Shown in pieces: positions 31,766 through 64,000 of a stretch of 64,000 nt of DNA. Origin of the DNA: Bdellovibrionota bacterium (GTDB taxonomy: Bacteria > Bdellovibrionota_C > UBA2361 > CALJRW01); assembly GCA_041740355.1 (NCBI GenBank), contig JBGSMD010000013.1, forward strand, positions 32,001-96,000, in the 5' to 3' direction. The notes beneath the pieces were generated by a model. The model searched no databases. It was given only the letters and a program-made list of their open reading frames with translations, and was not told the origin of the DNA. Each line of letters starts with the position of its first letter. Position 1 is the stretch's first letter. A program made the translations under genes and the position numbers.

Positions 31766-32117
31766 ATAAAAACCTTTGAAAATACAGATTAATATTATGT
31801 TAATCTATTTATAAGTACGATGTAGGTTTGTGAATTAAATATTCAAAAAAATATTTACGTTTTGTAATTTATCGTATTTTATAGGAATAAGTTTCGTATA
31901 AGTTACTTTAAAATTACGATAGCAAATATGATATCCATATAATTATATTCTAGGAGTCATTGGGAATATAGATTTTATTATTGTTTTGTAATGTCTGTTC
32001 GTTTACATTGTATTATAGTCAAAACTAAAGCGTATATATTAACAATTTCTTACTGAAATCAGCTAGTTGACTAAATGTTTGAGGGTCAAGATCAAATATG
32101 TAAATCTAAAAAAATTC

Positions 32118-59939: not shown

Positions 59940-60159
59940 GAATTTGTTTAAATAAAATAGTCAGTTGGAAGCATCCTAACTATAATTACTTAGCATTGTC
60001 AAAGATAAATAATGTTCGGTAAGAAGGTGGGCGAGCAAAATAATGGCTCAAGCATTTTTTGCCATGTAAAATGCACTAAACCCTCTTTCTTATATTTGTT
60101 ATCTTCAAAAATAATAAGTAAAGGCTTTAATTCTCAACAAAGTTACAACGAAGTAAATT

Positions 60160-61362
60160 ATGCAACGTCGACCAAGAAATCCTCAAGAGAAAGCAATCTT
60201 AAATAAAAAACCCTGGTCAACTAGAGCAGGAGGAATTGGCTTGGTTCTTTCGGGTGGTGGAAGTCGCGCTGCCTATCAAATTGGAGCTCTTAAAGCGCTG
60301 ATTCCCTATTTAGAAAATCAAGAACAGAATCCAATTAAAGTTGTGATTGGTTCAAGTTTAGGTGCAATTAACGGACTCTTGATCAGTGCCTGCTTAAAAG
60401 AAGGTATTGGACATGCAGTTGAAATCACAGAGACGCTCTGGAAGGAACGCACTTTTCGAAATACTTTTGCTGACAGTCCAACGAAATCTTTTTTTAGGGC
60501 AATTAAGGTTGCTTCCATTCAGTACTTAAACCCTGGACCAAACGCCAATACTGAATCTATTTTTAATCCTCGTCCCTTAATGGAGCGAGTTGATCAAGTT
60601 ATCAATGACCATGGTGGATTACATCCAGATAATCGTTATTCACAGTTGGAGTCTGTTGGCGTTATGACTACTATCGAAGGAGAAACAAGACGTCCGCTAC
60701 TATTTGTGAGTTCACATAAAGAATTAGAAGCACCGGCAATGTTGGGCGCTAGTTTTGATGTTTGCTATGTTGATTCACTTCAAGCTAAACATGGATTTGC
60801 TTCGGCAGCACTTCCCTCAGTGTTACCACCAGTCGAGTTGGATACTAAAGATGGCAAGGTTCGTTTAGTAGATGGTGGAATTTCTCAGAATGTCCCTGTT
60901 GATCCAGCTGTACGCATGGGAGCAGAGCGAATTATTTCAATTGATATTTCTGGACGTGACTGGTGGCTAGCTCGACAAAATTCTTCATTAGATACTAGAC
61001 CTTCGTGGGAAGTCGAGGCCCAAGAAAAAACTTTTTGCTTGCGTCCACCAGAAACATTTGTGCTTAGATGTCGTAAGCCACTTGGGGAGCTTCTTAAAAA
61101 TGCTGTTGGTTCTTCTACCGGTAAATTTATCAGTGCAGTCGGACCAATCTGGCCAATCTTTAAAATTCTTAAAAATCGATTAGGTGAAGAGGTAGCCTAT
61201 GAAACTCTATCCTATGTCGCACTTGATCCAGATTATATTCAAGGTCTAATTGAGCGAGGCTATAACGAAACTGTTCATCTTCTCAATAATCGAGTTGAGC
61301 CAGCTTTCCATCATCCTCAAAGTTATAAGCAGTTATTGGAAGAGGTTTATTCCGATTCTTAG
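60160..61362 (+). CDS. Patatin-like phospholipase
   Basis: LSGGGSRA, GSSLG (GxSxG), ASAALP, DGG. Confidence 0.92.
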   Translation: MQRRPRNPQEKAILNKKPWSTRAGGIGLVLSGGGSRAAYQIGALKALIPYLENQEQNPIKVVIGSSLGAINGLLISACLKEGIGHAVEITETLWKERTFRNTFADSPTKSFFRAIKVASIQYLNPGPNANTESIFNPRPLMERVDQVINDHGGLHPDNRYSQLESVGVMTTIEGETRRPLLFVSSHKELEAPAMLGASFDVCYVDSLQAKHGFASAALPSVLPPVELDTKDGKVRLVDGGISQNVPVDPAVRMGAERIISIDISGRDWWLARQNSSLDTRPSWEVEAQEKTFCLRPPETFVLRCRKPLGELLKNAVGSSTGKFISAVGPIWPIFKILKNRLGEEVAYETLSYVALDPDYIQGLIERGYNETVHLLNNRVEPAFHHPQSYKQLLEEVYSDS

Positions 61363-61429: not shown

Positions 61430-61499
61430 AAATAATAAATAATAAATAATAAATAATAAATAATAAATAATAAATAATAAATAATAAATAATAAATAAT
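61430..61499 (+). repeat. Heptamer microsatellite (AAATAAT)x10
   Basis: Ten perfect units counted directly. Confidence 0.97.
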
Positions 61500-61672
61500 T
61501 AAAATTAGTAACAATAGATAGTTGTAGAGTTGTTTACATTTTTGTTGGTATAGCTCAACTAACTGAAATAACAATATGACTAATGTTGACTAGGGGACAT
61601 GCAGAGTTTAATCTTAGCAAGATGTCGATTGATTAAGTTAGGTGACGATAAGTCGATAGCTATAAGTTATCC
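61491..61672 (+). mobile_element. Integron platform copy L: cassette promoter + attI-like site, crossover G/TT at 61666
   Basis: Ungapped match to 63841-64000 upstream of intI; internal repeats GTCGATTGATTAAGTT / GTCGATAGCTATAAGTT; the cassette starts at the last GTT. Confidence 0.8.
61586..61614 (+). promoter_or_regulatory. Pc-like sigma70 promoter, copy L
   Basis: TTGACT-N17-TAATCT; both hexamers and the spacing are conserved at 63936-63964. Confidence 0.7.
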
Positions 61673-61689
61673 GACTAAATAATATTCCG

Positions 61690-61989
61690 ATGGACAAAGA
61701 TGAAATCAATTTAATTGTTGAACTGGTAAACGCCATAAAGTCCGCAATCCAGCAGACTAAACAATTGTCGGATACTTGTCCCGCGTTTCCATTGTGGCCG
61801 AGTATTAATGAGCAATTGGAGCTTCTTAATGTACATTTAGAGCAAGGACTAAAACCTGATATCGAAACCCTTCAACGTATCGACATCGGCTTGATAGCGG
61901 CTCGTGAACTTGAATTTGATTTTCCTGACTACGCTGAATTGCTGGAAAGTATCGATTATGCAGTTTCTCGTTGGGATGAGCTAAAGTAG
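61690..61989 (+). CDS. Cassette gene, Tsi6-like immunity protein
   Basis: P.FP...SI..QLE....IGLIAARELE...PDYAELL..IDY pattern; lies between the attI-like GTT and attC. Confidence 0.6.
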   Translation: MDKDEINLIVELVNAIKSAIQQTKQLSDTCPAFPLWPSINEQLELLNVHLEQGLKPDIETLQRIDIGLIAARELEFDFPDYAELLESIDYAVSRWDELK

Positions 61990-61997
61990 GAACTGTC

Positions 61998-62083
61998 GGA
62001 TAACAAATCGCGCGACTCGGACGCGACGAAGTGATATAATTTAATTGAAGTGGATCGGCCCGCCGGTCCGCGAAACGTTATTT
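61998..62083 (+). mobile_element. attC site (86 bp)
   Basis: Inverse core GGATAAC and core GTTATTT. Arms TCGCG[C]GAC[T]CGG / CCGGTCCGCGA with extrahelical bases. GTCGGATAAC (61995-62004) is the exact reverse complement of the cassette start GTTATCCGAC (61666-61675). Confidence 0.9.
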
Positions 62084-62091
62084 TTGATATG

Positions 62092-62610
62092 TCAGTTAGT
62101 TTCATTTTTAAAGAAACCGATCCGTCGCTTTGTAAGTTCCATAGGCTTTTCAAGTTCAGAAATTAGAAAACGAATTTCTTTCAATTCTTGCTCGTATTGT
62201 GAAAAACCACTAACCAAGCGACGTTCGATATCTTGAAGTCGTCTCTTCATTTCAGTATGCTCAGAAAAGATTGCCCGCATTTTTATAAATGTTCTTACAA
62301 GCAGAATACTGGCATCAATAGCAATTTGACTATTTAAAATATTTGCTACCATTACGGCTCCATGTTCAGTAAAAGCATAAGGATTCGTTCTTCGCATGCT
62401 CCAATTTGCGGTCGCAAATTGCGACCGCAAATTGCTAACCTCCTGATCTTCCAGTTGAAACATGAAGTCATCAGGAAACCTTCTCTTGTTTCGCTTAACT
62501 TGCTCATTAAGTCTTTTTGGAGAAACTCCATAGAGGGAGGCAAGATCAAAATCTAATATGACTCTGCCTCCACGTAAAGTAAATATGATAGTCTCTAGTT
62601 CTATTGGCAT
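62092..62610 (-). CDS. ORF6N-domain DNA-binding protein
   Basis: IFTLRG.RVILD.DLA.LYGV...RLNEQVKRN..RFP.DFMFQL, PYAFTEHG, C-terminal RRIGF. Confidence 0.92.
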   Translation of the reverse strand: MPIELETIIFTLRGGRVILDFDLASLYGVSPKRLNEQVKRNKRRFPDDFMFQLEDQEVSNLRSQFATANWSMRRTNPYAFTEHGAVMVANILNSQIAIDASILLVRTFIKMRAIFSEHTEMKRRLQDIERRLVSGFSQYEQELKEIRFLISELEKPMELTKRRIGFFKNETN

Positions 62611-62793
62611 AAAAATTATTTACTCTTTTTATCGAGAATTTCTATAATTAATTGCCTAGAAGATTAAATAATTAAATGTTTTTAATGTTTCACAAGCGAG
62701 GAAAGTTGCCAGAATTTAAAGTAAATAATTTCTTATCGGCTAGATCTTTTTTCAAGCGGAGTCAGGCTGACAGCCATATTATTTGGCCTGTTA

Positions 62794-63783
62794 TCAAATT
62801 ATATTTAGATCGTTAGCAATTATATCAAGTGGACTTCTAGTGCCCACTCCTTTTTCTTTCGTAACATGAGTGTAAATCATAGTAGTCTTAACACTGCTAT
62901 GACCTAGAAGGACTTGGACTGTTCTGATGTCACTGCCAGATTCCAATAAATGAGTAGCAAAAGAATGGCGAAAGGTATGGCAGGTCACTTTTTTGTTAAT
63001 ACCAGCTTCATTTACAGCACGTGATAGTGATTTTTGTAGGATTGATGGATATAAGTGCCACCTGCTTATTTTTCCAGTTCTTGGATCTTTAGAGAGATTT
63101 TTCGAAGGGAACAAATATTGCCATTTAAATTCTTTACCAGCACTTGGAGATTTCCGATCTAAAGCATTGGGCAAAGAAATTCGACCATAGCCATTTTTTA
63201 AATCAACCTCATGGATCTTTTTAGATCTTAAGACCTGCTCTTGGAGATGTAACTTTAAAAAAAGGGGGAGGGGAATCGATCGATCTTTATTGCCCTTTCC
63301 TTGCCTAACGATAACTAGATTATTATCAAAATCTAAGTCTTTAATTCTTAGCTCCAATGCTTCTGCTAATCTCATTCCGGTTCCATATAGCAAGTAGGCA
63401 ATTAACCATTGTATCCCATTTAGTGCCCCAAGGATCTTTTTAATCTCTGAAATACTTAACACCACAGGCAAAAATTTAGTTTCCTTTGCTCGTATTAGTC
63501 CTTGAAATTCTCCGGGTTCTTTCTCCAGTCCTTTTTTGTATAAGAAGACCAAAGCGTTAAGCGCTTGGTTTTGCGTTGACGCGGAAACATTTCTATAAGT
63601 AGCTAAATAACTTAGAAACTCAGTTATCTCAGACGCACCCATCTGTCTGGGATGTTTGCCCTGATGAAATTGAATAAATTTTTTTACCCAGTGAACGTAG
63701 CTTTTTTCAGTCACATAGCTTAAGTGAAGGAGTCTAGCCCTCTCCCGCATAACTTGAAGTAAGCCTTTAGGTTTATCATTCAT
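62794..63783 (-). CDS. intI: Integron integrase
   Basis: VSASTQNQALNAL, YGTGMR, GKGNKDR, IntI-specific patch LPNALDRK.P...W.WQYLFPS...S.DPR...RWH, HTFRHSFATHLL, LLGH..V.TT.IYTHV. Confidence 0.97.
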   Translation of the reverse strand: MNDKPKGLLQVMRERARLLHLSYVTEKSYVHWVKKFIQFHQGKHPRQMGASEITEFLSYLATYRNVSASTQNQALNALVFLYKKGLEKEPGEFQGLIRAKETKFLPVVLSISEIKKILGALNGIQWLIAYLLYGTGMRLAEALELRIKDLDFDNNLVIVRQGKGNKDRSIPLPLFLKLHLQEQVLRSKKIHEVDLKNGYGRISLPNALDRKSPSAGKEFKWQYLFPSKNLSKDPRTGKISRWHLYPSILQKSLSRAVNEAGINKKVTCHTFRHSFATHLLESGSDIRTVQVLLGHSSVKTTMIYTHVTKEKGVGTRSPLDIIANDLNII

Positions 63784-63840
63784 GCAAATTCATAAATTGC
63801 ATACTAATCGCTTATTTATATGAGAAGTTTTTTAAAATTT

Positions 63841-64000
63841 ATAAATAATTAAAATTAGTCGAGATCGATAAATGTAGAGTTGTCTACATTTTTGACGGCC
63901 TAGCTTAACTAACGGAAATGACAATATAATTAATGTTGACTAGGGGATATGTAGAGTTTAATCTTAAGAAGATGTCGATTGATTAAGTTAGGTGACGATA
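63841..64000 (+). mobile_element. Integron platform copy R (canonical position upstream of intI), truncated by the window edge
   Basis: Divergent from intI; Pc-like TTGACT-N17-TAATCT at 63936-63964; by alignment to copy L the crossover GTT would fall at about 64016, outside the window. Confidence 0.75.

Follow-up and report, generated by a model that had tools for sequence, protein, structure and literature searches.

We analysed a stretch of 64,000 nucleotides (hereafter the window) from the genome of a Bdellovibrionota bacterium, at the right end of which lies a small integron with an intact integrase gene, intI. This gene sits on the minus strand between two direct copies of a 180-bp segment that we consider to be the attI platform of the integron, i.e. 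the place where gene cassettes are received. The genome, G000 in our set, is a metagenome-derived draft of 74 contigs and 3.27 Mb, 97% complete. The window covers positions 32001 to 96000 of its contig C13, and the sequence past the window end was read from the same contig. Positions are those of the window unless C13 is named; coordinates in the extracted locus L003 are window coordinates minus 58000. From left to right, the locus holds a patatin-like phospholipase gene, a perfect microsatellite, the left platform followed by one cassette (A), an ORF6N-domain gene and intI, and then the right platform followed by two further cassettes (B and C). All features are listed in Table 1.

Table 1. 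Features of the integron locus, with window positions unless contig C13 is named.
Feature	Position	Strand	Description
Patatin-like phospholipase gene	60160..61362	+	PF01734, E 3e-26; conserved chromosomal left flank, outside the element
Perfect microsatellite (AAATAAT)x10	61430..61499	.	TRF: period 7, 10.0 copies, 100% matches
Left attI platform (putative)	61491..61670	+	No integrase beside it; crossover G 61666, GTTAT 61666-61670
Cassette A, 411 bp	61667..62077	+	99-aa Tsi6-family ORF and attC_A
Tsi6-family ORF, 99 aa	61690-61989	+	PF18660, E 1e-9
ORF6N-intI-right platform interval, 1939 bp	62078-64016	.	From the attC_A crossover (between 62077 and 62078) to the right attI crossover (between 64016 and 64017)
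ORF6N-domain gene, 172 aa	62092..62610	-	PF10543, E 6e-34
intI, integron integrase, 329 aa, intact	62794..63783	-	TIGR02249
Right attI platform (putative)	63841..64020	+	57 bp upstream of the intI start; ends at C13 96020; crossover G 64016
Cassette B	C13 96017-96489		Beyond the window; 117-aa ORF without Pfam match; attC_B at C13 96383-96493
Cassette C	C13 96506-97102 (ORF)		Beyond the window; SAM-methyltransferase ORF; third attC truncated

The two platforms form a direct repeat of 180 bp with 23 mismatches (87.2% identity, BLAST E = 1.4e-44), 14 of which are transitions. The repeat was recovered by pairwise alignment, by whole-genome BLAST and by a repeat search (family D1, spacing 2350), and whole-genome BLAST detected no third copy in the 3.27-Mb assembly. 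The original prediction, made from the window alone, had counted 21 mismatches over 160 bp (61491-61650) and an identical run in the last 32 bp, and both figures hold. It had also expected a GTT near 64016 followed by an array of attC sites; GTTAT is indeed found at 64016-64020, and behind it come two cassettes, with one full and one truncated attC. The homology between the two copies does not go past the GTTAT.

Since attI sites have no general sequence model, the identity of the repeat can be judged from its position only. The right platform adjoins the 5' end of intI and closes at the crossover point of the core site (G↓TT), where it is joined to the first cassette, as would be expected of an attI site. 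One could argue that the 180-bp repeat is instead some other regulatory or mobile sequence repeated beside cassettes, and the core-like motifs AACTAAC and GTTAGGT found in the platform would fit such an explanation. Against it, the genome contains two copies only, one of them exactly in the place expected for attI, between the intI start and the first cassette, and both copies end at a cassette crossover; we hold this explanation to be highly improbable. Two structural candidates in the platform were discarded. The platform itself folds only weakly in an attC-like manner (z -2.3 for the left copy, -0.8 for the right), and an 18-nt inverted match (16/18) that links platform positions 61557-61574 with the beginning of the ORF6N interval is no better, or hardly better, than chance in this AT-rich region.

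We examined the cassette boundaries for the marks of integrase-made junctions. The start of cassette A, TTATCCGAC, is complementary to the inverse core (R'') of its own attC_A, GTCGGATAA (pair I10 of the repeat search), and the start of cassette B, TTATACGG, is complementary to CCGTATAA in attC_B. This complementarity, 9-10 nt long in cassettes A and B, is the signature of an insertion made by IntI at G↓TT. The attC_A site, at about 62000-62081, folds as an R box, a spacer and a bulged L stem (-14.1 kcal/mol), and attC_B as a long bulged hairpin (z -4.4, with 0 of 200 shuffled sequences as stable), and both full attC sites have the folds expected of gene cassettes. The complete cassette with a good attC that had been noted behind the left platform is confirmed by its ORF and by its fold. 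The third attC is cut after its R''/L'' half (C13 97101 to about 97130). Its remaining half and that of attC_A agree at 19/22 positions (pair D4), which indicates that cassettes on both sides of intI draw on one attC pool. Rfam returned no match for the attC sites, nor for anything else relevant at the locus. Together, the end of homology at GTTAT and the cassette signature lead us to consider both copies as attI-type sites into which a cassette was inserted, or which carry one.

A home-made attC hairpin scanner was also tried as a test for attC sites on both sides of intI, and abandoned, as it neither recovered arrays nor separated the strands. Genome-wide it gave 14,174 candidates and 61 passes (both strands of the two known attC, the rest mostly from other repeat families), and in the 99 comparison loci described below, its hits in cassette orientation numbered 12 on the 5' side of intI and 16 on the 3' side.

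As to cassette contents, the ORF of cassette A matches a family that Pfam describes just as ‘Tsi6’, whose members confer immunity in type VI secretion. By the look of it, cassette A carries an orphan immunity gene. For cassette B, a 247-nt contig of public run X4 matches window positions 64024-64270 (L003 6024-6270) with 1 difference. This run comes from a different study with an aquatic metagenome label; the contig has a depth of 2.1 and no context, and the rest of L003 is uncovered at that identity. Cassette B, or trace amounts of the organism, may be present elsewhere too, though the hint is a weak one.

IntI scores 425.4 bits against TIGR02249 (cut-off 265), over model positions 1-313 of 315. 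Over its residues 12-320 it aligns with few gaps to residues 9-318 of IntI4 (PDB 2A3V, E 1e-83), including the integron-specific insert, and keeps the RHR/Y motifs and, in the same alignment, the GKG-K motif, all of which place it in the IntI clade. It is the sole such gene in the genome. The ORF6N gene, whose stop codon lies 12 bp past the GTTAT of attC_A, has three paralogs elsewhere in the genome (53-60% identity). The order first read from the open reading frames, with ORF6N and intI on the minus strand after attC_A, agrees with their PF10543 and TIGR02249 matches, and folding revealed no attC-like hairpin between the two genes.

ORF6N was considered as a conserved integron component and rejected: of 99 other loci, a single one (L013) has it next to intI, and its paralogs are found in unrelated contexts. 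A locus recorded as the only other one with ORF6N near intI (L118, on G037:C57, 8256-12000) has its ORF6N about 850 bp 3' of intI, with a 106-aa ORF in between, and a 368-aa ORF after ORF6N which, by eye, may be another tyrosine recombinase. In the locus studied here, the ORF6N coding sequence contains a perfect 16+16-nt palindrome (33 nt, 62402-62434), and this part of the gene attracts piled-up contigs from other organisms or paralogs.

The interval comprising ORF6N, intI and the right platform thus begins at the crossover that closes cassette A and ends with a putative attI fragment at G↓TT, which are the boundaries of an attI-ended (delta-attI-type) cassette. Judged from its junctions, it is structurally a cassette whose 3' site is attI instead of attC. 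The original prediction had described a segment bounded by directly oriented recombination sites that could be excised; the bounds proved to be exact at both crossovers.

How could intI come to lie between two attI copies? Given the exact junctions, we hold the integrase's own chemistry to be the most likely origin of the layout, with a probability of about 50%. According to a recent study, IntI recombines attI x attC at the core-site G↓TT, and attI x attI and secondary-site events occur too (PMC12901181). The right copy is in its normal place, upstream of and divergent from an intact intI, and is followed by two cassettes; the left copy, devoid of an integrase of its own, is followed by one. 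Two routes can be proposed. In the first, a circle carrying ORF6N, intI and attI would have entered behind cassette A by attI x attC recombination, the recipient being a related platform that lacked its integrase, or lost it later. In the second, an unequal exchange between an attC and a secondary site would have duplicated the whole unit, after which the first intI copy would have been lost and the second copy of cassette A excised. By either route, the single IntI could at present serve both attI sites, and the integron would have two entry points. A crossover between attC_A and the right attI would release intI in a circle of 1.94 kb, and one between the left and right attI would release it in a circle of 2.35 kb. 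A two-entry-point integron had been proposed from the start. This proposal stands in that there are two platforms, each joined at G↓TT to a different cassette; the concept in itself is not new, as it applies to In104 (see below).

As the main rival explanation, the left copy may be a decayed relic, left by a tandem duplication through homology or slippage, or by two related integrons lying side by side. The left integrase would in this case have been deleted, the breakpoint would now be the microsatellite, the left platform and cassette A would be dead, and the position of intI would have no functional meaning. We regard this as possible, although doubtful. In its favour, the microsatellite, a hypermutable sequence, sits exactly at the left boundary of homology: it abuts the left platform, which it overlaps by 9 bp, and the right copy has 1.3 units only (ATAAATAAT at 63841-63849). 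The copies have diverged by 13%, and the left one has lost a perfect palindrome that the right one keeps. The far end of the array has decayed too, as a MITE-like inverted repeat comes after the truncated attC there, and In104 is a precedent for partial duplication of integron segments. Against the relic, the junction between attC_A and the ORF6N-intI interval falls at the attC GTTAT with the ORF6N stop so close behind, which would be a coincidence unless the junction was made by an integrase. The 60 bp nearest to the crossover hold 4 of the 23 mismatches, although this is a trend only. Finally, no integrase remnant was found in the 128 bp that separate the patatin stop from the left platform, where similarity to intI or its leader is limited to matches of at most 11 nt. 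As had been noted at the outset, the left copy is preceded by the patatin gene (PF01734) and the microsatellite (TRF) only.

The palindrome just mentioned, AATGTAGA-GTTG-TCTACATT, is 20 bp long and perfect in the right platform (63871-63890), between intI and attI. The left platform has only a degenerate version of it (61521-61540, with TGTAGAGTTGTTTACA at 61523-61538). Its 16-nt core is the sole perfect copy in the genome, which contains 11 sites with at most one arm mismatch. The right-platform palindrome may be an operator. Its assignment as an SOS box was rejected as unsupported: none of the 11 sites is at lexA-recA (C30), and the lexA leader does not carry the motif.

In a 74-contig metagenome draft, one has to ask whether such a layout could be an assembly artefact, either two strain variants of one integron strung together, or a single-platform chromosome accompanied by a separate circle of 2.35 kb. 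We compared the locus with contigs of public sequencing runs. Run X1, which has a hot springs metagenome label and may be the source sample, contains 92% of the words sampled. A contig from this separate assembly covers L003 3627-4818 with 0 mismatches and joins the end of the left platform, cassette A, attC_A, ORF6N and the 3' end of intI. Further X1 contigs pass through intI, on to the right platform and cassette B and the cassettes beyond. This chain of contigs on both sides means that a platform is needed on each side of intI. Two more runs of the same study show parts of the same arrangement. Depth is also even over block and flanks, with 12.1, 10.6, 14.6 and 10.4 for the long X1 pieces (10.6 for the piece from cassette A to intI, as compared to 12.1 and 10.4 for the flanks), which is evidence against a multicopy tandem array. 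On the other side, the X1 contigs break within a 38-bp run that is identical in the two platforms, as expected for short k-mers. The pairing of the left parts of the platforms with their cassettes therefore rests on the original assembly, and the link between microsatellite and platform is not covered by any listed contig. The 38-bp run is flanked on either side, at a distance of 1-2 bp, by variant positions that are within the span of ordinary 150-nt reads. Overall, we find an artefact very unlikely.

The dependence of this pairing on the original assembly is one of several points that weigh against an origin by integrase chemistry. The layout is expected to be unstable if both sites are highly active: in the study cited above, an attI1-gene-attI1 construct was excised at more than 97% (PMC12901181). 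Combined with the 13% divergence between left and right platforms, this leads either to a recent union of diverged partners, or to low or no activity of one of the two sites. Contigs from four public runs contain neither a circle nor a deletion joint, although rare forms would escape notice in contigs. The conservation gradient is weak as well. Mismatches per 60-bp third are 12/7/4 toward the attI end (permutation P about 0.06), and the longest identical run between the platforms, 38 bp, has a permutation P of about 0.07. Of the earlier claim that divergence avoids the attI end and that both sites are maintained, only a trend is left, which does not reach significance. The candidate Pc promoter, TTGACT-N17-TAATCT, is identical in the two copies, as had been reported; it agrees with the consensus at 8/12 positions and stays under the promoter-scan threshold, and the region holds 12 promoter-like sites against 14.8 expected from shuffled sequences. 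Lastly, the layout is known from a single genome and none of the relatives searched has the same platform, so that comparative support is absent.

To see how unusual the layout is, we surveyed 99 comparison loci in which IntI was located, 19 from relatives and 80 from metagenome contigs. Flanks of at least 150 bp upstream and 500 bp downstream were available for 69 loci (30 were dropped for short flanks), 15 of which fall short of the 1.3 kb of downstream sequence that a copy placed as here would need in order to be seen. A direct copy of the 400 bp upstream of intI was found on its 3' side in 0/69 loci, and one of the 69 has an inverted 82-nt match to these 400 bp. IntI is present in 30 of the 61 genomes of the order, G000 included, and the best match to our integrase is 64% identical and belongs to another family; the 80 loci from the metagenome scan are all at most 55% identical. 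The platform has no BLAST match in the intI loci of the 19 relatives. Among 91 genomes of the order, 8 besides G000 gave only hits of 22-57 nt with E of at least 4e-5, which we treated as chance. Scans of genome contigs with exact platform 36-mers and 24-mers gave 0 and 0. A search for further solo platforms in the genome and its relatives, suggested by the original prediction, thus ends with the two copies in G000 and none in relatives.

The locus has to be compared to three known systems. Sedentary chromosomal integrons, as presented in the main text of Cury et al. 2016 (PMC4889954), share with it a TIGR02249 integrase, a divergent attI, attC cassettes, a chromosomal location and a patchy distribution, which is seen here within the order. 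In the standard form there is a single attI, and the cassettes lie to one side of intI, whereas here there are two attI; a term search in the main text of that paper, which describes IntegronFinder, brought up no layouts with two attI around intI (PMC4889954).

The second system is In104, the complex class 1 integron of Salmonella genomic island 1. According to two reports, it has two attI1 sites, each with a cassette, a state that arose through duplication of conserved segments including part of intI1 (PMC2297512, PMC7598458). The likeness is that a single element holds two attI sites and that each of them has a cassette, and the difference lies in the duplicated part of intI1, as our integrase-less copy has no intI remnant and is not preceded by a duplicated partial intI or 5' conserved segment. 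Moreover, the locus described here has an intact intI between the attI copies, these copies are 13% diverged, and it is chromosomal, environmental and of another class than In104. The intact intI1 of In104 has a terminal position, outside the pair of attI sites.

The third system consists of clinical cassettes whose end is an attI fragment of 11-238 bp; IntI1 recombines them, as it does attI1-gene-attI1 constructs (2026 study, PMC12901181). These units resemble the ORF6N-intI-attI interval by their 3' recombination site, which is an attI piece and not an attC. Their cargo consists of resistance or other passenger genes, whereas here it would be intI and ORF6N, with a platform of 180 bp. Their mobility was shown experimentally for IntI1, while here it would be a prediction from the DNA. 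Two attI sites and attI-ended cassettes are therefore already known in clinical integrons, and what appears to be new is an intact intI between two attI copies. No such arrangement, in a cassette-delimited interval, was found in the openly readable literature, supplements excluded.

The genomic surroundings show where this integron lies. Together with the MITE-like piece and a pilin-like gene (PF07963), it occupies a block of about 5 kb between two convergent conserved genes. In G001, a sister species of the same genus (genome 94% complete), the patatin protein is 92% identical and its gene stops about 10 bp from the stop of the next conserved gene. This next gene, which encodes 210 aa and is convergent with the patatin gene, adjoins it in G001, and in G000 the same gene is 5 kb away. 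The block was therefore either inserted in G000 or lost in G001, where no IntI match was found. The integron in it is real, small and chromosomal, and either came in with the block or was retained with it.

Two repeat families were encountered in these surroundings. The MITE-like stretch, of about 365 bp (C13 97136-97510, window 65136-65510), comes directly after the truncated third attC and is bounded by a 15-nt inverted repeat, GTGCCAGGCAACTTT / AAAATTGCCTGGCAC. Its end motif occurs 4 times in the genome, and the copy at C16:236239-236290 is 94% identical over 52 nt. Near at least one copy of this motif lies an ORF (C16 236427-236669) that may be an IS200/RAYT-like transposase. Just upstream of the patatin gene, at 60036-60100, there is a copy or part-copy of an abundant structured repeat of about 140 nt, with ends TAAACCC...GGGTTTA and an internal GGCAAAAAATGGC..GCCATT hairpin. 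This family is present on many contigs (e.g. C38:164753-164898 and C6:41500-41635), and dominated the genome-wide hairpin scan.

What does the locus mean for integron biology? If the left site is dead, the locus amounts to no more than a small environmental integron that was duplicated and has decayed. If both sites work, it would be a naturally occurring integron with two entry points, away from the clinical class 1 setting. A further-reaching idea, which we consider rather unlikely, is that intI itself is a mobile attI-ended cassette, an ORF6N-intI-attI circle leaving one array and entering the attC or attI of another. To our knowledge, integron integrases are thought to spread only on transposons and plasmids or by vertical descent. 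If this idea were true, the locus would be a caught intermediate of integrase replacement, in which the 13% divergence of the platforms is older than their union. A mobile intI cassette would re-arm integrase-less (CALIN-like) arrays, and swap integrases by the integron's own chemistry. The locus thus bears on the question of how integrase-less arrays arise and get re-armed, and makes the hypothesis that IntI moves its own gene directly testable.

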